64,000 nt of DNA from Clostridia bacterium (GTDB taxonomy: Bacteria > Bacillota > Clostridia > UMGS1883): positions 31,065 through 95,064 of the forward strand of contig JAUNBL010000003.1 in NCBI GenBank assembly GCA_030527235.1, in the 5' to 3' direction. The notes under the pieces are model-generated. The model did no database searches. It saw nothing but the letters and a program-made list of their open reading frames with translations, and was not told where the DNA came from. The translations under genes were made by a program, and so were the position numbers. Positions 52,591-63,692 of this stretch are shown here, piece after piece; the first letter of the stretch is position 1; every line of letters begins with the position of its first letter.

Positions 52591-52666
52591 TCCTCAATAG
52601 CTCAGTCGGTAGAGCATGCGGCTGTTAACCGCAGGGTCGTTGGTTCGAGTCCAACTTGAGGAGCCA
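52591..52666 (+). tRNA. tRNA-Asn (anticodon GTT), CCA encoded
   Basis: Cloverleaf folds by eye: acceptor tcctcaa/ttgagga, D-arm gctcagtcggtagagc, anticodon loop cTGTTAa, T-arm gttggttcgagtccaac. Confidence 0.9.
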
Positions 52667-52670
52667 TATA

Positions 52671-52713
52671 TACTGAACGATTTGGATGCACTCCAAATTG
52701 TTCAGTATTTTTG
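52671..52713 (+). terminator. tRNA terminator hairpin; its 5' arm is copy 1 of a repeated motif
   Basis: tactgaacgatttgg/ccaaattgttcagta 15-bp stem then TTTTTG. Confidence 0.6.
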
Positions 52714-52819: not shown

Positions 52820-52887
52820 CAGCAAAAAAACATTCAGAAAATCAAATTCAAAATTCAAATTGAAAAACAGTAAAAAGCATATGTGAA

Positions 52888-52945
52888 CAATTTGGATGCA
52901 CAACAACTTTTTCAGGATTTGAACCGGAGATACACAAATTTATAT
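52888..52945 (+). repeat. repeat copy B: tgaacaatttggatgcacaacaactttttcaggatttgaaccggagatacacaaattta, upstream of gene at 53025
   Basis: Near-identical to copy at 53483-53540; contains TTGAAC -35-like hexamer. Confidence 0.55.
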
Positions 52946-52957
52946 AGAATACAAATC

Positions 52958-52996
52958 AGACGATAGTTTCTAATTAGAGATTATCGTCTTTTTTTG
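52958..52996 (+). terminator. hairpin plus T7 tract (member 1 of tatcgtcTTTTTTT terminator family)
   Basis: agacgatagtttctaa/ttagagattatcgtct then ttttttt. Confidence 0.55.
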
Positions 52997-53024
52997 TGCT
53001 CAAAAACGAAAGGACAGGATGAAT

Positions 53025-53402
53025 ATGAATCAGACGGAGTTTGAACATTGGCAAAAAGTTATGGACAGCAGCAAATATAGATGGGTTGAGGATGTCGTTG
53101 CTCGCCATAATGGTCATGGTTCTTTATATTACACCGGCGGTGAAGACGGCATCTATATGCGCATCTCCGCAGAGGGAAAGCTTACGATTGGAGAATATAA
53201 GGACGCATTTCCTCATATTGGAGAAGCAACATTTATTCCAAAAGCAGAGCATCAATACGATAGCTATAGCAAGGCTTTTGAGGCAGCCTGTAAGCTCGGT
53301 GGCGTACAGTTTCTCGCAGATATGTTTTCAAACGTTCAAATACCGCAAGAGCCGATTCCAACCGATGAAAGCGACAGCAATGGTATGAATATGGAAATGT
53401 AG
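53025..53402 (+). CDS. hypothetical protein (126 aa), first gene of element region
   Basis: ORF with AAAGGACAGG RBS; acidic C-terminus; no recognised motif. Confidence 0.4.
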   Translation: MNQTEFEHWQKVMDSSKYRWVEDVVARHNGHGSLYYTGGEDGIYMRISAEGKLTIGEYKDAFPHIGEATFIPKAEHQYDSYSKAFEAACKLGGVQFLADMFSNVQIPQEPIPTDESDSNGMNMEM

Positions 53403-53482
53403 CTTGTAAGAACAAGGTGTTATATATTACTACACTGATATCTTCCGTTTTGAGAACTTGAAACGCTATGACGGCATGTGCT

Positions 53483-53540
53483 GAACAATTTGGATGCACA
53501 ACAACTTTTTTAGGATTTGAACCGGAGATATATAAATTTC
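53483..53540 (+). repeat. repeat copy C: ctgaacaatttggatgcacaacaacttttttaggatttgaaccggagatatataaatttc, upstream of gene at 53571
   Basis: Near-identical to copy B. Confidence 0.55.
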
Positions 53541-53570
53541 TTAAAATACAAAATACAAGGAGAGATGCAC

Positions 53571-54227
53571 ATGAAAAATAACAGACTTTTAGACCAAATG
53601 CTGAAAATGCTTCCAAAGCACGAGCGAGTGAGCTATGAAGCAGCCACAGCGAGAATTGATGTTATCATTGACGGAAGTCCTAAATTCTACATACGGGAAA
53701 GCGGCGGCGTTACCTTTCCTGCAAATATGCTACATGATGATTTGTCCCGCAATTTACACGATGAGATTGTGCTGACAAGAGAGTGCGTGTCGGAATATTT
53801 GTTTGCAATGGACAATGCCTCCGATCTAAAGGCGTATGACTTTAATATGCCATACAAAAAGATTTTGGAATATAACGGTGTAGTGCTTGGCGGATTAGAA
53901 ACCAAAGACGGCGAATACAATTTTACAACCTGGAATTATGTCAAAGGAAGCTTGTACCACGGTCATTATTACGGAAAAGACTATAAAAAGGCAAAGGAGG
54001 ATTTTGTAACACGGTCAGGTCTTGTGAATGAAAACAGATTATTTACAGAAAAAGAAATGACCGCAATTTACAGAAGTGTTTCGGAAACGCTTGAAAGCGG
54101 ATATGAGCTTGACGATGAACAAATCAAGCTGCTAAAAGATATAAGAGATAAAATTGAATATGCTGTCCCAAGCCTTGATGAAACGGTCTGCGAGTCAAAC
54201 AATCAAGAATACGGACAGTCATTATAA
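53571..54227 (+). CDS. hypothetical protein (218 aa)
   Basis: AAGGAGAG RBS before ATG at 53571; no recognised motif. Confidence 0.4.
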   Translation: MKNNRLLDQMLKMLPKHERVSYEAATARIDVIIDGSPKFYIRESGGVTFPANMLHDDLSRNLHDEIVLTRECVSEYLFAMDNASDLKAYDFNMPYKKILEYNGVVLGGLETKDGEYNFTTWNYVKGSLYHGHYYGKDYKKAKEDFVTRSGLVNENRLFTEKEMTAIYRSVSETLESGYELDDEQIKLLKDIRDKIEYAVPSLDETVCESNNQEYGQSL

Positions 54228-54240
54228 CAGGAGGTATAAA

Positions 54241-55398
54241 ATGTTTACGGCAAATATAAGATATAATGATTCAAGTGCAAATATTGAATTTCCCTGCGAT
54301 AATAGCTATTTATATTCCAAGCTTATGGAGATGCGTGTATCAGAGCAAACATATCAAGATCTAAAGCTGTTTGTGAAAAAAATAGACTATGATGCGTTAT
54401 CATGCCTTGAGGACAACTTCGTTGATTTAGGCGAACTGAATTTTTTGGCACAGCGGTTAGACAGTTTTAGTTATCAGGAGGTAGTTAAGTTTAATGCTGT
54501 TGTTAAAGAATTCGGCATTAAGACGATGCCGGAGTTTATCAATCTGACATATAATATGCATTACTATACCCTGCTGCAAGACTTGAGCAGCGCTGAAAAA
54601 ATCGGCAAAACGTATATGCTTACGAGAAATGGCGGAATGTCTGAAAAAGAAATATTGGAAACGGATTTTGAAAAAATCGGGAAACAGCTTATTGAATCGG
54701 GACGAGGCAGACTTACAGAGCATGGTCTGTTATTTGTCAATGATGATTTGCCATATGACCATGAATATAACGGAGTAACACTGCCGTGCTTTTTTTATCG
54801 CGACTGCTTATTTACTGTATCGATGGGATATGACGGTAAAACAAGCTATGTGCATTTGCCCGATGTACCGTATGCAATATCAAATGCAGTTAACAGACTC
54901 GGCGCAGCTTCACCGATGGATTGTAAAGTGGAATTTGAGCAATTTGGTATAGAAAATATTGATTTGCAGGAAAGACTCAAAGCTGTTGTGGTGAACGAAG
55001 GAATATACAAGCTAAATGAAATTGCGGCGGCGATTCATGAAATTTCAGATTACGAGGAACTGCAGAAATTAACAGATATTATTGAATTTTCAGGGCGAGA
55101 GGACGGTGACACAATTATAAGTCTCGCAAAAAATATTGATGAATTCATATTCTACCCTGATGTTGCAGATGCAGATGCGCTTGGCAGAGCAATAATTGAA
55201 GAAAATGAGGAATATCACATTCATCCGGATATTGCGGACTATTTTATGTTTGAGCAGTATGCAGAGGAAATAATGCGGGAATGTGACTGCAAATTCACGG
55301 AAAATGGCGCAGTCTTATTAAAAAGTAAAACGCTTACCGAAATTCTCAGAGAGGAACAAAGCGGTGAATGCATTAACAGAGGTATTGAATCGATGTAG
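54241..55398 (+). CDS. expanded ArdA-like anti-restriction protein (386 aa)
   Basis: By-eye similarity to Tn916 ArdA: GELNFLAQRLDSF vs ArdA IGELNRLWEMVSEL, and acidic C-terminal module FYPDVADADALGRAIIEENEE / IADYFMFEQYAEEI; paralog of 58690..59931. Confidence 0.45.
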   Translation: MFTANIRYNDSSANIEFPCDNSYLYSKLMEMRVSEQTYQDLKLFVKKIDYDALSCLEDNFVDLGELNFLAQRLDSFSYQEVVKFNAVVKEFGIKTMPEFINLTYNMHYYTLLQDLSSAEKIGKTYMLTRNGGMSEKEILETDFEKIGKQLIESGRGRLTEHGLLFVNDDLPYDHEYNGVTLPCFFYRDCLFTVSMGYDGKTSYVHLPDVPYAISNAVNRLGAASPMDCKVEFEQFGIENIDLQERLKAVVVNEGIYKLNEIAAAIHEISDYEELQKLTDIIEFSGREDGDTIISLAKNIDEFIFYPDVADADALGRAIIEENEEYHIHPDIADYFMFEQYAEEIMRECDCKFTENGAVLLKSKTLTEILREEQSGECINRGIESM

Positions 55399-55474: not shown

Positions 55475-56659
55475 ATGAACAAGAACAATCTTACAAAACA
55501 AGAACGAATACAAGAACATATCAAAGAATTTTTGAATGACGGAGAAGTTCATGGAATTAGAAAAATATACGATTATGTTGATATGAAGCTTAAAGAGGAT
55601 GGCGAATACATCTTTGAAATCAACACATATGTTAATATAGCAATTAAAAAACTTATTAACGATGGCGAATATGCTCGGGTTGCAAAAGGGTTATACCAAA
55701 AAGGCGGAACACCTTATATAGCACAAAGGAAACCATCAAATTCAAGTAAAGAGCGTAAAAGCAAGATGGCATCAGTTTCTGTGAGTGATTTTGCAAACAA
55801 GGCGCGCGCATTGCTTAAAGGAAGACCATCGGTATCTAACATAACTGACGCTGAAAGTAAAAACTATGAGTCAATCAAAAGCTTTATGGAAACACAGCTT
55901 GATATCATAAAAGAAACGGCAAATAAGCTAAAAAGCATCTCGGCATCAACTGCAGCAAACGAAAAAATATGTGAGTATTTCAAAGAGATACTTGACGACG
56001 GCTATCCGCATAAGATGCAGGAAATTCAAAAGTATATATATGACAAAATGCTTGAGAACAACGAGTGGAATAAGGAAATAATGCCATGCGTATTTTACAA
56101 AACCATAGGCAATTTGGTAAACGATGAGGGTAATCCATATATAAAGGTGAAACACGGTGTATATCAGAAGGAACAAGAAGCGACGCACGATGTTAGGGAG
56201 TTTTCGCTGAATAATCTTGAAGACTTGCTTGATGACGGTTTTATGCTATCGGAAGATGCGATTGACCTGGAATTTCAGAATTATTTGCTTCAGGACGATA
56301 CAAAAGAACCAAAAGAAGAAGTAAAAAATATGATAGACAACATTAAGCAAGCGGTTAGCAAAACCGTTGATGGAGTTTCCTATCTAATGGCGTTTATTGA
56401 AGATTGTCAAAATGACAGAGAAAGCATGAAAAAATATTCCATATTAGAGATGAAATCCGGCAAATATATAGTTTTCCAAGAGCATGAAAAATATAAGCTT
56501 GGGGAAGAAAATGACAGAATAATTTTTAATGACGAGGCCGATGCAAATATGACTCTTGAACTTTTAAATGATGTAAGCGACGGCTGTTTTGTTCTCCTTG
56601 ATGAAGACATTGATGAAAAGCTACAACCGACAGACGAAATGACGATGGACGGCATGTAA
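55475..56659 (+). CDS. acidic protein with two tandem HARE-HTH-like winged-helix modules
   Basis: Internal duplication: IQEHIKEFLNDGEVHGIRKIYDYV..YARVAKGLYQK and ICEYFKEILDDGYPHKMQEIQKYIYDKM..YIKVKHGVYQK, each ending in the RVxxGxY motif characteristic of HARE-HTH. Confidence 0.45.
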   Translation: MNKNNLTKQERIQEHIKEFLNDGEVHGIRKIYDYVDMKLKEDGEYIFEINTYVNIAIKKLINDGEYARVAKGLYQKGGTPYIAQRKPSNSSKERKSKMASVSVSDFANKARALLKGRPSVSNITDAESKNYESIKSFMETQLDIIKETANKLKSISASTAANEKICEYFKEILDDGYPHKMQEIQKYIYDKMLENNEWNKEIMPCVFYKTIGNLVNDEGNPYIKVKHGVYQKEQEATHDVREFSLNNLEDLLDDGFMLSEDAIDLEFQNYLLQDDTKEPKEEVKNMIDNIKQAVSKTVDGVSYLMAFIEDCQNDRESMKKYSILEMKSGKYIVFQEHEKYKLGEENDRIIFNDEADANMTLELLNDVSDGCFVLLDEDIDEKLQPTDEMTMDGM

Positions 56660-56809
56660 TTATGATTGGCCGAAGCATCGGTTTCAAACCAAAAGGATAT
56701 ATTAGGCAATTCCCGAAAGAAGGCGCTTGAAAGCTTGTGCAGTACGCAGATTGATTTTTTTGATTTATATGATAAAATAAATACATATCAAAACAAGGAG
56801 GTGGCTGCT

Positions 56810-57892
56810 GTGATAAAAAACGGAAGCATTATGGCGGGAGACATTGAAACCGCAAGGCTTGCTGATGGCAAAATTATTCCTGTGCTGGGGGAGCTTATGC
56901 CGCTTTATCTGCAAAAGGAAAATGACATAATGGGCTGGCTTTCGGGCAGAGCGATAGACAGCCGCAGAACGAATGCCAGACTGCTGAAAAAAGCAATGCG
57001 GATTACAGCTTTATGCGACGCCGATGTTGTATTAAGAGTTCACGCGGCAACCATCACAGATAAATATTGGTTCAAAGAAGAAGACAGCCGACTTTGCTAT
57101 GACGATGTAAAATTCAAAGAAAATGTTTTTGATAAGCTGGTGCTCTGCGGCGATCCCGACAGCTTTAATAACGAGGGCGATTCAACGCCGGAGCTTACCA
57201 ATACGGGCAGCTTTGAAAAGTGCTGGCGGATAACGGACGGCGTTTGGTGGTTGTATAAGCAGGGAAACGATAACGAAAGATTTTCCGAATTGTTTATATA
57301 TCTTCTCGGCAAGACGCTTGGCTTTAATATGGCTTATTATGAGCTTGAGGACGGATATATCAAAAGCCGTGATTTTACCGCCGGCGCAGAGGTGAACTAC
57401 GAGCCGATGCACAGCCTTGTGGGAGAGGACGAGGACTACCAAAGGAGCTTTGAAATTCTAAACAGTCTATGCCCCGGCGCCGCAAAGGATTTTGTAAAGA
57501 TGATATATCTTGATACAATCTGCTTTAATATGGACAGGCACACGAGGAACTACGGCGTTTTGAGAAATACTGAAACAGGCGAAATAATAGGCTTGGCGCC
57601 CAACTTTGATAATAATATTGCGCTGATAGCCCGGGGATATCCGAAAAACATTGAAAGAACCAATGACAGGCTTATAACGCTTTTCGGACAGTTTATTTCC
57701 GATAATGCTGCGGCAATGGCATATTATGATGAAATAGACAGGAGCATTCTTACAGAGGAGCTGCTGAATCACTTGATTGACCAAACAGGCTTTGAGGTTG
57801 ACAGAGAGCATATAGTAAAATTTATTATGTCGGGTGACGCGGTTGTTTGTGAGATGGCGTCGGGACAGGAACACGGTTTGAAAATGGAATAG
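56810..57892 (+). CDS. HipA-like / CtkA-like serine-threonine kinase domain protein
   Basis: HipA_C-like motifs: GSFEKCW (G.Q.K-like), catalytic NMDRHTRNYGVL (cf. HipA D-x-H-x-K-N), LAPNFDNNIAL (cf. LAPAYD). Start set at GTG after AAGGAGG; the track ORF extends 144 nt further 5'. Confidence 0.55.
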   Translation: MIKNGSIMAGDIETARLADGKIIPVLGELMPLYLQKENDIMGWLSGRAIDSRRTNARLLKKAMRITALCDADVVLRVHAATITDKYWFKEEDSRLCYDDVKFKENVFDKLVLCGDPDSFNNEGDSTPELTNTGSFEKCWRITDGVWWLYKQGNDNERFSELFIYLLGKTLGFNMAYYELEDGYIKSRDFTAGAEVNYEPMHSLVGEDEDYQRSFEILNSLCPGAAKDFVKMIYLDTICFNMDRHTRNYGVLRNTETGEIIGLAPNFDNNIALIARGYPKNIERTNDRLITLFGQFISDNAAAMAYYDEIDRSILTEELLNHLIDQTGFEVDREHIVKFIMSGDAVVCEMASGQEHGLKME

Positions 57893-57914
57893 CTAATAAT
57901 TGAATAATTAAAAT

Positions 57915-57954
57915 CAGACGGTAATTTCTTAATTGAAGTTATCGTCTTTTTTTA
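57915..57954 (+). terminator. hairpin plus T-run (member 2 of terminator family)
   Basis: cagacggtaatttctt aatt gaagttatcgtct ttttttt. Confidence 0.5.
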
Positions 57955-57982
57955 TACAAAAAATGTATAGGAGGAATATGTA

Positions 57983-58354
57983 ATGGCTAAAAGAATTGAA
58001 GCTTGCCGAGAGGAACAAAGCAACGAAATTAAATACGACCTTATTGAGGTAGTAGAACAGAAGGCGCTTTTTACCAATGCACGGCTTACAGATGAAGATG
58101 TTTCTGACGGATTATATTGTTATCATCTGCGCTATTCCGACAGCGAAAACGGCTTTATAAGCATTGAACCGAGGGTTGGTGTAAACCACGGCGGATCGGT
58201 TATAACAAAATTTCCGATTGATTTTGGTGATGACGGATATATCTCGTTTGACGATGATACCTCGCCCAATTTTCTTGGCGAACATATGACAATATGGGAA
58301 TATGTGCAGACTGATTTTGAACAGGAACAAACAGGCGGCATAAATCAATGCTGA
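57983..58354 (+). CDS. hypothetical protein (123 aa)
   Basis: ORF with GGAGGAATATG start context; no recognised motif. Confidence 0.4.
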   Translation: MAKRIEACREEQSNEIKYDLIEVVEQKALFTNARLTDEDVSDGLYCYHLRYSDSENGFISIEPRVGVNHGGSVITKFPIDFGDDGYISFDDDTSPNFLGEHMTIWEYVQTDFEQEQTGGINQC

Positions 58355-58384
58355 CAAGGAACTATGAAAGAAGGGAGAGATAAT

Positions 58385-58678
58385 ATGAACGGATTTCCAA
58401 GCAAAGAAATTGTTGACAGCATAAGGCGGCAATATCCGCCCGGCACACGGATAGAGCTTATATCAATGGACGATCCCTACAGCAAGCTTGAACCCGGCGA
58501 CAGGGCTACCGTTACGGGAGTTGATGACATTGCCACCGTACACTGCAATTGGGACAGCGGAAGCTCTTTGGGACTCGCCTACAGCGAAGACAGATTCAGG
58601 AAGCTTACCGAACAGGAAATTGCCGAGGAACAGAAGCAGTCGGAGCAACCAAATGACGGCATGAATATGAACTTGTAG
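58385..58678 (+). CDS. DUF4314-like small protein
   Basis: G..I.LISMDDPYSKLEPGDRATVTGVDDIATVHCNWDSGSSLGL matches my recollection of the DUF4314 pattern common in Clostridia conjugative elements. Confidence 0.4.
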   Translation: MNGFPSKEIVDSIRRQYPPGTRIELISMDDPYSKLEPGDRATVTGVDDIATVHCNWDSGSSLGLAYSEDRFRKLTEQEIAEEQKQSEQPNDGMNMNL

Positions 58679-58689
58679 GAGGTATAAAA

Positions 58690-59931
58690 ATGTCTTTGAA
58701 AGAAAAATTAGCATTAGAATTAACGACAGTTAATCCTGTCAGCGGTGAATATATTTATACAGATTTGCTTCTTCCTGCATTGCCCTTTGAGATTGAGGAT
58801 GCAATGCAGAGAGCAAGAATCACAAGTAACTATGCCGATATGCTTGATATATCGGTTCTAAACTGCGCATATTTGCCGGAGCTTACCGACACAATGCTGG
58901 ATGGAGCGTCAATCAAGGAGCTGAACCTGTTTGCAAAACGGCTGCAGACACTAAGCGATGACGAGATATACGCACTAAACGGTGTGTTTATGCAGCAAAA
59001 GGAAAACGGGATGTATGAAAACGGCATATCAATGGAGGAATTGATAAACCTTACATACGGTCTTGACGCTGTCCCTATTGTTCACGGAATAGATTCCGAT
59101 GAGAAAATCGGTGAATTTGTGATTGACAACAACCTATGTGAAGAACTTGTCGGAACAACGCCGGATTCAATAAGGTTTTTGGATAAAGCCTTAATCGGAA
59201 AGGCGCACAGAGAATCCGAAAAAGGTCAGTTTGTTGCGGGAAACTATGCGGCAACGGCAATCTATTCATTTCCGCAGGAGTATAAAGGCGTAAGCAGAGA
59301 AAAGTTAAAAATCAATAACGACATTGCGTTTGTATTGGAGGTTGCAGAAGCTCCGGTAAACGACAGCCGGGAAACAGCCGAAACTGCCGAAGCCTTGTAT
59401 CTCCCAATACCCAAGTCGGATGCTGATGAATTGGCGATTGCCCATAATGAAAAATGCATTGAGGATTGCGTATATTATGATTTTAAAAGCGCTATCCCCG
59501 GCATTGACAGCGAGATGTTCACAGATATGCAGGACTTTGACAAGCTCAATGAAATTGCCGACAGGTATATTTCGTTTTCGGTGTCAGACAAAATCAAGCT
59601 TAAAGCGGTTGTCGCAAAGGAATGTCCTAAAGCCTTGGAGGATGTAATTGATATTTGCAATAACTTGCGAAGGTACGAGCTTTCATATTACAGCGATGAT
59701 GCAAATAATTTTGCTAAGGAATATCTTTCACATCATCTGTCATCAGACTTTGACTGCAAGATATTTGACGGTATTTCCCTTGATGCGCTCGGTCAAAACA
59801 TTATCAAGGTGTTGGGTGCGACCGTCACACCTTATGGCATAGTATCGGAAAGGGACGGCAGCCTTTTTGAAATAAAAAACAAGCACGAGGAAGCCTTGGA
59901 TCAAGACTTCGGAGAAATTCAGCAATGCTGA
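58690..59931 (+). CDS. expanded ArdA-like anti-restriction protein (413 aa), paralog of 54241..55398
   Basis: Shares LP(F)..SIKELNLFAKRLQ..INLTY blocks with the 54241 gene and ArdA-like ELN.L motif. Confidence 0.45.
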   Translation: MSLKEKLALELTTVNPVSGEYIYTDLLLPALPFEIEDAMQRARITSNYADMLDISVLNCAYLPELTDTMLDGASIKELNLFAKRLQTLSDDEIYALNGVFMQQKENGMYENGISMEELINLTYGLDAVPIVHGIDSDEKIGEFVIDNNLCEELVGTTPDSIRFLDKALIGKAHRESEKGQFVAGNYAATAIYSFPQEYKGVSREKLKINNDIAFVLEVAEAPVNDSRETAETAEALYLPIPKSDADELAIAHNEKCIEDCVYYDFKSAIPGIDSEMFTDMQDFDKLNEIADRYISFSVSDKIKLKAVVAKECPKALEDVIDICNNLRRYELSYYSDDANNFAKEYLSHHLSSDFDCKIFDGISLDALGQNIIKVLGATVTPYGIVSERDGSLFEIKNKHEEALDQDFGEIQQC

Positions 59932-59944
59932 GAAAGAGAGGATA

Positions 59945-60337
59945 ATGATAAAAATGAGAGTTTTGGCAGTAAAAATGGAAGAAAATTTGTTTGATGAGCT
60001 AAAGGCACATGTTAAAAAGTCAGGGCTGACCATGCAGCAATATGTTAATACAACGCTTGAAAGAGATATTCATTCACAGGCACAGACGCAGACGCAGGAT
60101 AATCAGCCAAAGGTATGGGAAAAGGACGAGGTCGAAAAGGCAATTGACGCATTCATTTCTCAAAACGGCAGAGTTCCTCGTCAGACTGAATTCAAAAACG
60201 AGAACGGTCTGCCGTCATACAAGGCGGCGGCAAGATGCTTGGACAGCTCCCCTGCTCAATATGCGCAAAGGCGCATGGATGAAACGGGAATTGCTGAACA
60301 AGAACAGGAAGCCGAAGATTTTTCAATGAGTATGTGA
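59945..60337 (+). CDS. ribbon-helix-helix (CopG/Arc-like) domain protein
   Basis: N-terminal MRVLAVKMEENLFDELKAHVKKSGLTMQQYVNTTLERDI fits the ribbon-helix-helix beta-alpha-alpha pattern. Confidence 0.5.
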   Translation: MIKMRVLAVKMEENLFDELKAHVKKSGLTMQQYVNTTLERDIHSQAQTQTQDNQPKVWEKDEVEKAIDAFISQNGRVPRQTEFKNENGLPSYKAAARCLDSSPAQYAQRRMDETGIAEQEQEAEDFSMSM

Positions 60338-60339
60338 AC

Positions 60340-60376
60340 AGGCGGTATCTTCAAAAGAGGGTATCGTCTTTTTTGT
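60340..60376 (+). terminator. hairpin plus T-run (member 3 of terminator family)
   Basis: aggcggtatc ttcaaaagag ggtatcgtct tttttt (G-U containing stem). Confidence 0.5.
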
Positions 60377-60713
60377 GTACCATGAAAAAGCAGGAAGGGA
60401 GAATAAAGCGGTGGATGAAAGAAACGAAAAGCTTTGCAGGGAAATCGGTGTGACCGCAGCAGATATCATATGTCTTTGGTGCGCATACGAGGAAACGCCG
60501 GAGGAGTTTTGCACATCCTTGATGTGCTCCGCAAGATATGAGGACAAGGAAAATATTATTGCAGATATGCGTTCGGACGCAGACAGGATATCCGCTGCGG
60601 TATATGAGATGGACATAGACGTATTGGATACACTGTACAGAGATTTTGGGATTTCCCTTACAGAATATTCCGACAGTCTGAACAGATCGCTTACAGGCGA
60701 GACTATAACCTAA
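60375..60713 (+). CDS. hypothetical protein (112 aa)
   Basis: ORF only; Cys-containing, acidic. Confidence 0.35.
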   Translation: MYHEKAGRENKAVDERNEKLCREIGVTAADIICLWCAYEETPEEFCTSLMCSARYEDKENIIADMRSDADRISAAVYEMDIDVLDTLYRDFGISLTEYSDSLNRSLTGETIT

Positions 60714-62452: not shown

Positions 62453-63466
62453 ATAGGCAGAAATATCAAAAGTCCGTTTGGCTGGGTAGGCGGAAAGGGA
62501 TCATCAAAGCACATAATCCTTCCGAGCTTGCCGCTTGGCTGCGACAGGTTTATAGAGGTGTTCGGCGGAGGCGCAACAATTCTTTTGTCAAAGCTTGCGG
62601 ATAAGTTTGAGGTGTATAACGATTTTAACTCGGATCTGGTAAATATGTTTATGTGTATACGAGATATGCCGTTGTCCTTTGTGAGAGCGGTAGGATGTTT
62701 TCCGCTGGTCAGCAGACAGGAATTTAAGCTGCTGCAGGATTTTCTGCAGCGCAAGCAATTTGATTACAGCCTTATCGAACAAGAAAAGAAAGCTGCAAGA
62801 GAAATCTTTAACGAAGAAGAAGCGAACCGAATTTGCACGATCCTACAGGGACGGACGGAGCTATACAATGTGGACAGAGCAGCGGCGTTTTATAAAGTAA
62901 TACGCCTAAGCTACGGAAGCAGCGGCAAAAGCTTCGGAAGTCAACCGGAGAATTTGGGTAAGACGCTTTTAGACATTTATGCGATATCAGACAGGCTTAA
63001 AAATGTTGTCATTGAAAACAAGGATTTTGAAAGCCTGATTAAGCAATACGACAGAACAAACTCCGCATTTTATTGCGATCCCCCGTACTATCAGTCAGAG
63101 GGCTTTTACGAGGTGGAGTTTGGCACAGAGGACCATCTGAGACTGAGTGAATGTCTGCATAGCATAAAAGGCAAGTTTCTGCTTTCGTACAACGATTGCA
63201 GCTTTATAAAAGACTTGTATAAGGATTGTATGATTTACGAGTTTTCCCGTCCGCATTCACTTGCCCAGCGATACAGAGCAGGGAGCGTGTTTAAAGAACT
63301 GCTTATATCGAATTTTGATATGAATGAACGAAGAAAAAGCGAACCCGTACAATTAAATTTATTTGGAGATGAGATATATGCAAGAGACCTTTTACAAGAC
63401 TATAGGCAGAAAAGGCAGAACAACTATACCGTTATGTATGAGGCTTGTCTTAGGGATAAGAGATAA
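62453..63466 (+). CDS. Dam-like (D12 class) N6-adenine DNA methyltransferase, orphan; apparent non-canonical start
   Basis: Conserved N-terminal KSPFGWVGGK and FGGGA (motif I) and DPPY (motif IV, CDPPYY). These lie upstream of the first canonical start (TTG 62528). In-frame stop at 62444; candidate ATA at 62453, 9 nt after GGAGG. Confidence 0.65.
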   Translation: MGRNIKSPFGWVGGKGSSKHIILPSLPLGCDRFIEVFGGGATILLSKLADKFEVYNDFNSDLVNMFMCIRDMPLSFVRAVGCFPLVSRQEFKLLQDFLQRKQFDYSLIEQEKKAAREIFNEEEANRICTILQGRTELYNVDRAAAFYKVIRLSYGSSGKSFGSQPENLGKTLLDIYAISDRLKNVVIENKDFESLIKQYDRTNSAFYCDPPYYQSEGFYEVEFGTEDHLRLSECLHSIKGKFLLSYNDCSFIKDLYKDCMIYEFSRPHSLAQRYRAGSVFKELLISNFDMNERRKSEPVQLNLFGDEIYARDLLQDYRQKRQNNYTVMYEACLRDKR

Positions 63467-63692
63467 TACATTATTAAGGTTCACGAGAACCGACAAGCAG
63501 GTAATCATCACACCGATGCGGGAATGTGAAAGCGGCATATGTGAAATGCACAGAAAAAGCACGCTTGACGCATCCGAAATCGAAACCTTAATCGGCGAGA
63601 TATCTGATGAAAGTCTGGCGCAGATGATACCTGTCATTGTAAACAAATTAAAGAAAAGCGCCGGAGCAGCTTCCGGCAGCGAGGAAAACTGA
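63378..63692 (+). CDS. AbrB/MazE-type (swapped-hairpin) DNA-binding protein
   Basis: IGRKGRTTIPLCMRLVLGIRDNTLLRF resembles the AbrB/MazE/SpoVT looped-hinge motif. Confidence 0.45.
   Translation: MQETFYKTIGRKGRTTIPLCMRLVLGIRDNTLLRFTRTDKQVIITPMRECESGICEMHRKSTLDASEIETLIGEISDESLAQMIPVIVNKLKKSAGAASGSEEN

Follow-up and report, generated by a model that had tools for sequence, protein, structure and literature searches.

The stretch of Clostridia DNA analysed here, 64,000 nucleotides long and called the window throughout, carries the usual anti-restriction/establishment end of a Bacillota conjugative element, and on it two neighbouring genes that form the subject of this work. One encodes a tandem winged-helix protein, which we refer to as protein 1; the next encodes a Ser/Thr kinase of the HipA/CtkA fold (Table 1). 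The element is an integrative conjugative element (ICE) inserted next to a transfer RNA gene for asparagine (tRNA-Asn), which is its probable integration site and left boundary. Chromosomal glycoside-hydrolase genes lie to the left of this tRNA gene, the G+C content falls from about 0.47 to 0.37-0.40 directly downstream of it, and from there a run of forward-strand genes reaches the end of the window. The genes in this run include two ArdA-like genes, an LPD28 gene, a DUF4314 gene and an orphan D12-class DNA methyltransferase gene, all on a single strand within the mobile element. An initial annotation had located both genes in the leading region of a conjugative element. Their place among anti-restriction genes of such an element, near tRNA-Asn, is borne out; that this is the leading side is presumptive, because the window covers about 11 kb of the element and the relaxase and oriT lie beyond it.

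A HipA/CtkA-type kinase and a tandem winged-helix protein

Structure prediction places the kinase inside the HipA/CtkA fold, as had been proposed from its motifs. The AlphaFold2 (AF2) model reached a predicted local distance difference test (pLDDT) score of 86 and a predicted template modelling score (pTM) of 0.87, and its top 26 Foldseek matches were all HipA, CtkA or HipT (E 1.4e-7 to 1.4e-4, probability 1.00). The best matches among PDB structures were HipA (4pu5, 1.4e-7), CtkA (3.4e-7, TMt 0.63) and HipT. At the level of sequence the resemblance is fainter. The Pfam HipA_C family (PF07804) matched marginally (31.0 bits, the cutoff being 30.5; E 2.5e-7), and several close relatives of the kinase fell just under the threshold at 27-29 bits. 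A family profile built from 50 sequences found CtkA among PDB sequences at E 1.8e-4 and nothing else real, and phmmer with the kinase alone returned only CtkA, weakly. Eight PADLOC PDC-M03A models also matched, the best at E 1.1e-11 over aa 178-374. The NCBIfam collection gave no match for the kinase.

The HipA C-terminal kinase motifs reported initially, the catalytic loop NMDRHTRN and the Mg-binding LAPNFDNN, are present and conserved. When the kinase was aligned with 50 homologues of 49-66% identity, residues T130, N131, G133, S134, E136 and K137 of the P-loop, the YK lysine K150, R243, H244 and N247 of the catalytic loop, and D267 were invariant, and D242 nearly so. Since the catalytic residues are kept in this way, we infer that the kinase is probably catalytically active. 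The catalytic loop corresponds to DRHNGN and LAPNFDNN to the 'APIFD' motif of CtkA, and an hhalign comparison of the kinase family with E. coli HipA paired D242 with D309, N247 with N314 and D267 with D332, at a non-significant E of 0.08 and over the catalytic loop only. We take the P-loop to be the equivalent of the HipA loop S150-VAGAQEK, so that the autophosphorylated Ser150 would have a conserved hydroxyl residue as its counterpart; pLDDT is low at residues 124-133 of the model, in agreement with a mobile P-loop.

The N-terminal half, initially described as non-canonical, does lack a sequence match, in that neither HipA_N nor Couple_hipA of Pfam matched the kinase at E<=1. Its fold is another matter: because in Foldseek the alignments with full-length HipA extend over about 440 columns, the modelled N-terminal domain is probably HipA-like. 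The predicted protein is identical to a protein from a metagenome-assembled genome (MAG) at NCBI (P0001) and its start agrees with the NCBI call. A longer, TTG-initiated open reading frame (ORF) from 56666 is unsupported, as the homologues all begin near 'NG.LMS.D'.

Protein 1 is, on its AF2 model (mean pLDDT 86), a tandem winged-helix protein, each copy showing the succession helix, strand, helix, helix, hairpin. The internal duplication proposed earlier holds, with a local alignment score of 103 between residues 1-140 and the rest of the protein against 36 +/- 6 for shuffled sequences (maximum 67), although the repeated unit measures about 75 aa and not the claimed 100 or so. Both copies close with the (R/K)VxxGxYxK motif originally noted, as RVAKGLYQK and KVKHGVYQK, respectively. 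A repeat profile of 25 copies has the near-invariant or invariant signature E-x-L-x-D-G-x-x-H ... Y-x-(K/R)-V-x-x-G-x-Y-Q. The protein as a whole is acidic (pI 4.8, net charge -23), the winged helices carrying net charges of 0 and -4.

In protein 1 the C-terminal module is a mobile domain in its own right, found alone in proteins of 60-120 aa or fused to varied N-terminal regions; P0133, P0134, P0139-P0147, P0157, P0159 and others match protein 1 only at about residues 315-380. Its consensus is SI.E..SG.Y.V.E..G.Y.LG...DR..FYDE.EAE..L..LND....C.VL.DE, for which Pfam holds no family. Foldseek searches of the PDB with the whole model ranked the kleisins MukF/MukE, RPC62 and JetA highest by E-value (8e-4 and weaker); with TM-scores of about 0.15 and a root-mean-square deviation (rmsd) of about 25 A, kleisin homology was rejected as a likely by-product of tandem winged helices joined to long helices. 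A Foldseek search of viral structures was uninformative.

The family to which protein 1 belongs is small and unnamed. An exhaustive HMMER search of 1.84 billion proteins yielded 43 representatives at E<=1e-3, and a set of 5.8 billion proteins yielded 10 clusters; the family was defined by the exhaustive search, a word-indexed search with the whole protein having returned zero matches, itself included. NCBIfam has no family for protein 1, PHROGs gave families of unknown function only, and the annotated plasmid collection contained no relative.

The two copies had been labelled HARE-HTH (HTH, helix-turn-helix) domains, an assignment that sequence tests do not support. Neither PF05066 (HARE-HTH) nor any other Pfam family matched protein 1 at E<=1 or any of the 43 family members at E<=0.01. 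The hhalign comparison of the repeat profile with the B. subtilis RNA polymerase delta subunit's N-terminal domain, the founding HARE-HTH member (query sequence 100% identical to PDB 6zfb_D), gave a probability of 0.5%, and a search of the PDB with the profile returned only noise. What holds is the winged-helix fold with its C-terminal hairpin wing, which is common to many winged HTH families and so does not discriminate among them. Protein 1 resembles HARE-HTH domains (as in RNA polymerase delta, ASXL and restriction-enzyme fusions) in having a winged helix of about 75 aa whose wing bears a hydrophobic-x-x-G-x-aromatic motif. It is, however, structurally nearer to other winged helices, the best single-domain Foldseek matches being the cullin winged-helix B domain (TM 0.8, rmsd 2.0), a linker-histone domain and the Rpa2 winged helix; S. 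aureus delta (8x6g_E) comes in 27th place (TMt 0.59; 25% identity at an rmsd of 2.3 A). We know of no HARE-HTH signature that includes the invariants of this family (D-G-x-x-H, Y and G-x-Y-Q). Thus, protein 1 represents a new family of winged helices, which are possibly distantly HARE-like.

Neighbourhoods of the two families and a shared C-terminal tail

The kinase family is large, comprising 2,506 clusters at E<=1e-3, with relatives encoded in 451 of 185,579 species-representative genomes. Clostridia and Bacillota related to them (Oscillospiraceae, Ruminococcaceae, Eubacteriales) account for nearly all of the best 80 loci, apart from a few MAGs labelled otherwise. Several contexts are rich in conjugation and mobility genes. 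One locus (L001) has a VirB4-like ATPase, NlpC/P60, three integrases, a DNA methylase, LPD28 and MobL; another (L004) has TrbL, VirB4, a MobL relaxase, Toprim and a type IV coupling protein. A third set (L006-L008) combines a methylase, SpoVG, DUF4314, ArdA, YodL and Tad-like pilus genes, and a fourth (L089-L092) VirB4, NlpC/P60, GNAT and serine recombinases. Within the annotated plasmid collection all relatives of the kinase were distant and most were called 'hypothetical protein', and the one context inspected there was uninformative; distant tblastn matches fell on Helicobacter and Campylobacter plasmids.

A recurrent feature within the kinase clade is DUF6788. This domain is fused to the N-terminus of 28 of the top 120 kinase homologues, and of the kinases at 26 of 86 loci as judged by ORF length; examples are P0048, P0091 and P0114 (...GYISRKVINGKERFYLQW...). 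At about six loci a separate gene for DUF6788 plus an AAA/STAND-like ATPase stands directly upstream of an unfused kinase (e.g. L004 8001-9389; L006/L008 6039-7916). This suggests that DUF6788 is functionally linked to the kinase clade.

The initial annotation had raised the possibility that protein 1 and the kinase form a functional pair, as a toxin-antitoxin or abortive-infection system. Co-occurrence of the two families gives this no support. All ORFs of 88 kinase-bearing loci were translated and compared with both protein 1 and the repeat profile of the winged helices, and a winged-helix relative within +/-6 kb of the kinase was found in 1 of 86 loci (L018), where it has a single winged helix in 287 aa (E 1.1e-14) and lies upstream of the kinase, its end about 440 nt away. 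In one further element (L089-L092) the order is reversed with respect to the window, a DUF6788-kinase coming first and a relative with a single domain following three genes downstream; the 125-aa gene directly upstream of the kinase there was considered and is not a relative. The kinase's surroundings vary greatly in general: the +/-4 neighbours at 86 loci comprise 578 proteins in 416 clusters, the commonest of which occurs at 10 loci, and the 76 immediate upstream neighbours represent 65 Pfam families, with TrbL at the top (7/76) followed by integrases, AAA ATPase and GNAT. A Pfam census of these 76 neighbours revealed no recurrent HTH or antitoxin.

Protein 1 keeps other company. Genomic contexts of its relatives were available for six loci. 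Its closest homologue (P0121 at L094; 36% identity over 321 aa) stands behind two ArdA-like genes that are 35-41% identical to the first ArdA-like gene of the window (54241-55398), and downstream of it come homologues of two window genes, 59945-60337 (40%) and 60375-60713 (33%); no kinase lies beside it at that locus. Another relative (P0170 at L093) adjoins ArdA, with no kinase in 6.7 kb. Since ArdA precedes or adjoins the relatives of protein 1 in both cases, the ArdA-like gene is the conserved partner of the winged-helix family, and the kinase is without one. In the window, unlike L094, protein 1 and gene 59945 are separated by an additional block, in which the kinase is joined by LPD28, DUF4314 and the second ArdA-related gene (to 59931). 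Because L094 has the same backbone without the kinase, the kinase block looks to have been inserted into the protein 1 backbone as a cassette, and the gap of 150 nt between the two genes, with its putative promoter, and the hairpin that follows the kinase give this cassette the look of one with its own promoter and terminator. That the two genes are neighbours in the window is most readily attributed to a shuffling of cassettes among the cargo genes of related elements.

A second feature unites the kinase with its neighbours. Most element proteins of the window end with an acidic stretch followed by an alternating tail rich in Met and Leu, with the consensus ...[DE]n-G-[MFI]-x-[ML]-x-[ML] (Table 1), and the tail also occurs at L001, L004, L054, L066, L067 and others. 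Full-length members of the winged-helix family nearly all carry it (GMTMC, DMTMSGL, GMQGMSGM, EMGGMQM, GMEMSM, LTMTM, DMSMSM, GMSLSM), and [GSTDEN][MFIL]x[MLF]x0-2 is the ending of 59 of 120 kinase homologues (e.g. DEDNSMGLTL, EDENGFGLTL, GQGMQMD). Among 895 non-redundant ORFs of the kinase loci, 28 have at least two Met in the last seven residues where 9.2 were expected (Poisson 4e-7), and 27 of these 28 lie on the strand of the kinase. The same measure gave 4 of 13 element ORFs and 1 of 51 chromosomal ORFs in the window (Fisher p 0.005). An origin as a by-product of overlapping ribosome-binding sites (RBSs) or start codons was rejected, the intergenic gaps being 10 to 170 nt. A limited literature search found no description of this motif. 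The tail is a candidate signal, either for substrates of a type IV secretion system (T4SS) or for degradation.

Candidate roles of the two genes

Taken together, our findings make it moderately probable that protein 1 and the kinase are two independent cargo genes in the establishment region of an ICE, the kinase being an element-encoded effector that acts on host or recipient proteins; of the readings of the kinase this appears the most likely by context and analogy. The initial annotation had listed a kinase that attacks defence proteins of the recipient among its options, and such a role agrees with all that was observed. The kinase would phosphorylate host or recipient proteins upon entry of the element into a cell or during its residence there, and the targets might be translation factors, as for HipA, or proteins that serve defence or handle nucleic acids in other ways. 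It might be made early from the incoming DNA, be delivered as a protein through the T4SS, or both, in which case the shared acidic, Met-rich tail would serve as recognition signal, as in CtkA of the H. pylori tfs3 ICE. Protein 1 would most likely work with the ArdA-like protein in the same establishment programme, and may bind protein or modified DNA rather than act as a classical DNA-binding repressor, to which its net acidic charge makes it unlike.

Precedents make such an effector mechanism plausible. CtkA is a variable cargo gene of the tfs3 ICE whose activity needs the Tfs3 T4SS and a C-terminal tail that is common to the unrelated tfs3 cargo proteins PZ39 and Fic (PMC5536186). An F-like plasmid T4SS transfers plasmid-encoded proteins, among them SSB, PsiB, PsiA and ParA/ParB, into recipients (PMC8406263), and the phage T7 kinase broadly disarms defence systems via phosphorylation (PMC13645617). 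It is tempting to speculate that the tail found here is recognized by a Gram-positive conjugative T4SS, and that the kinase and its neighbours are thereby injected into the recipient ahead of or with the DNA; this remains a tentative idea which we hold to be on the unlikely side. Were it true, the kinase would be a bacterium-to-bacterium effector phosphorylating defence or housekeeping proteins of the recipient.

By sequence, the kinase family is closest to CtkA (JHP0940). Both are Ser/Thr kinases of the HipA superfamily fold, CtkA being the only PDB match of the family profile; both are variable single cargo genes of conjugative elements with no antitoxin, and both end in a tail common to unrelated cargo proteins. 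The tails themselves differ, however, that of CtkA being basic (KRRR) and the one described here acidic and rich in Met and Leu. Furthermore, identity in structural alignments is about 17%, about 125 aa at the N-terminus of the present kinase form an additional domain that CtkA lacks (the CtkA alignment starts near query residue 155), and the host of the present kinase is a Gram-positive gut anaerobe with no evidence for action on eukaryotic cells. To HipA of E. coli and Shewanella the kinase is similar in overall fold, probably including the N-terminal part (4pu5, as above; 3hzi, TMq 0.61), and in the pairing of the catalytic Asp and Asn and the Mg-binding Asp, yet it has 360 aa against 440 aa and sequence similarity is undetectable outside the catalytic loop. 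In contrast to HipBA, no HipB-like gene adjoins the kinase, either in the window or among relatives at 76-86 loci. The T7 protein kinase (gp0.7) offers a functional analogy for the preferred mechanism, as an early, invader-encoded enzyme that disables defences by phosphorylation, although it belongs to an unrelated kinase lineage and to a phage rather than a conjugative element.

Several observations weigh against an effector acting on host or recipient proteins. The tail is missing from roughly half of the kinase homologues, that of the window kinase (EHGLKME) is a weak example, and the tail could be a degradation signal (degron) and not a secretion signal. Several kinase loci (e.g. L002, L003, L005) show no recognised conjugation gene in the flank examined, and the leading-region label is presumptive, as noted. 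The two families share an element more than once (the window, L018, L089-L092), which leaves some room for a loose functional link between them. Finally, the matches to PADLOC models for candidate defence systems leave a defence role for the element's host conceivable.

On that last view the kinase would be a toxin acting by itself, for defence or addiction, to the benefit of the element's current host, either a single-gene abortive-infection kinase or a toxin that restrains itself through a HipS-like N-terminal domain and, in some relatives, through the DUF6788 domain or a neighbouring DUF6788-ATPase. Defence genes are common on mobile elements, and the PDC-M03A matches, the HipA-like N-terminal part of the fold, the fusion of 23-30% of relatives to DUF6788 and the DUF6788-ATPase genes directly upstream at about six loci are all in keeping with it. 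In HipBST, HipS, the equivalent of the N-terminal piece of HipA, is the antitoxin (PMC9325769). PDC-M03, however, is a two-gene candidate, composed of a HipA-like kinase and a HIRAN-domain protein (PMC13245101): the window kinase matches the models of its A component, but none of six neighbouring proteins scanned matched the B/HIRAN component, protein 1 included. PDC systems are, moreover, candidates and not validated defences, the window kinase sits among anti-restriction rather than defence genes, and no phage-related trigger is evident. We regard a stand-alone toxin as unlikely.

A functional pair, with the kinase as HipA-type toxin and protein 1 in the role of HipB as DNA-binding antitoxin or sensor, is highly improbable. 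HipA toxins are normally preceded by an HTH antitoxin gene, as in HipBA, and here the two genes are adjacent on the same strand with no predicted terminator between them, the kinase has the fold of HipA toxins, PADLOC AbiEi models weakly match the wing of copy 1 (E 0.006), and one more adjacent case (L018) and one same-element case (L089-L092) are known. Against this, of 86 kinase loci 85 are without the partner, what lies upstream of the kinase varies extremely from locus to locus and includes no small HTH protein that recurs, relatives of protein 1 occur without the kinase (L093, L094), and at L089-L092 the order is reversed with three genes intervening. The synteny with L094 indicates insertion of the kinase block, and the gap of 150 nt with its promoter-like site differs from the overlapping or tightly coupled genes of type II toxin-antitoxin systems, as does the acidic, multi-domain protein 1 of 394 aa from HipB at about 90 aa. 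That one or both ORFs are non-functional remnants or mis-called, with incidental similarities, has practically no likelihood. The HipA_C score only just exceeds its threshold and protein 1 lacks a named family, but both genes have strong RBSs, confident structure models and homologues with conserved motifs, and thousands of full-length kinase relatives exist, with 50-66% identity and invariant catalytic residues, which effectively refutes it.

With the pair reading fallen, the experimental effort that it would have called for can be saved, and what gives the finding its weight is how large the kinase clade is, together with the shared tail, rather than the gene pair. Among kinases of the HipA/CtkA kind this one is new and uncharacterised, its genetic setting resembles that of CtkA, and it stands for a very large and likewise uncharacterised clade of that superfamily which conjugative elements of gut Clostridia carry as a single gene among ever-changing neighbours. 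If it modifies recipient proteins, it would be the conjugation-side counterpart of the phage T7 kinase and CtkA, and would bear on how such elements spread through gut communities. The tail provides a testable handle on which proteins Gram-positive conjugation machines transfer and how these are recognised. The winged-helix family, new, small and consistently linked to ArdA, is a candidate anti-restriction accessory.

Other features of the element end

The features located in the window are collected in Table 1.

Table 1. Positions of features at the left end of the element (window coordinates; aa, residues of the encoded protein)
Feature	Position	Strand	Basis or remarks
tRNA-Asn (GTT)	52591..52666	+	ARAGORN; probable left boundary and site of integration
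C-terminal tail of 53019 gene, ...SNGMNMEM	53382-53402	+	
ArdA-like anti-restriction gene, 385 aa, pI 4.45	54241..55398	+	Pfam ArdA E 3.6e-10; AGGAGG RBS
C-terminal tail of ArdA-like protein (54241), ...RGIESM	55381-55398	+	
Protein 1, tandem winged-helix, 394 aa	55475..56659	+	ATG, 7 nt after GGGAGG
Winged helix copy 1, aa 8-76	55496..55702	+	AF2 H8-20, H28-41, H49-62, E66-70, E73-76; repeat profile E 3.8e-29
Disordered basic linker of protein 1	aa 84-100		AF2 model
Helices of protein 1	aa 103-156		AF2 model
Winged helix copy 2, aa 160-232	55952..56170	+	AF2 H160-173, H181-194, H204-215, E222-226, E229-232; repeat profile E 3.9e-32
Helical region of protein 1	aa 245-318		AF2 model
C-terminal module of protein 1, aa 321-376	56435..56602	+	compact b-b-b-a-b, pLDDT above 90
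Met-rich C-terminal tail of protein 1, EMTMDGM	56636..56656	+	
Promoter-like site TTGATT, 16 nt, TG-TAAAAT	56751..56778	+	consensus scan, 9/12 positions; putative
HipA/CtkA-fold Ser/Thr kinase, 360 aa	56810..57892	+	GTG, 7 nt after AAGGAGG
P-loop (glycine-rich, ATP-binding) TNTGSFEK, aa 130-137	57197..57220	+	alignment of 50 homologues
Catalytic loop NMDRHTRN, aa 240-247	57527..57550	+	
Mg-binding LAPNFDNN, aa 262-269	57593..57616	+	
C-terminal tail of kinase (56810), ...HGLKME	57872-57889	+	
Terminator-like hairpin and T-run after kinase gene	57916-57947	+	consensus match; copy of repeat D3
LPD28 gene	57983-58354	+	Pfam LPD28 4e-30
DUF4314 gene	58364-58678	+	Pfam DUF4314 1.5e-29
C-terminal tail of DUF4314 protein (58364), ...DGMNMNL	58658-58678	+	
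Second ArdA-related gene	58690-59931	+	related to 54241-55398 gene
C-terminal tail of 59945 gene, ...EDFSMSM	60317-60337	+	
Orphan D12-class N6-adenine (Dam-type) DNA methyltransferase gene	62528-63466	+	

Short repeats mark this part of the element. Repeat D2, a 43-nt sequence (TGAACAATTTGGATGCAC...), is present in three copies at the element edge (52668-52710, 52878-52920 and 53476-53518), the first of which abuts the 3' end of tRNA-Asn and is in itself palindromic (CTGAACGATTTGGA...TCCAAATTGTTCAG). Two of the copies extend to about 109 nt as repeat D1 (52884-52992 and 53482-53590), just upstream of the first two element genes. These repeats could be att-related sequence, a binding site for a regulator or a repeated, possibly single-strand, promoter. 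Repeat D3 consists of related terminator-like hairpins at 52948-53014 (hairpin 52958-52989), 57906-57972 and 60340-60369, of the form AGACGrTAnTTTCT...ATTATCGTCT followed by a run of T, whose flanks are conserved (75% identity over 67 nt). They come after separate gene blocks, and may mark the cassette boundaries at which cargo modules are exchanged.

Near the window end, a small AbrB/MazE-like ORF (63363-63692) follows the D12 methylase and fits the anti-restriction gene set. Long ArdA-related paralogues of about 385-447 aa occur at two or more per element, both in the window (54241-55398 and 58690-59931) and at L006 (1699-4301) and L094 (5-2136), and share an N-terminal region in addition to the ArdA domain. 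The order of a DUF4314 gene followed by a 58690-like gene is kept between the window and L006.

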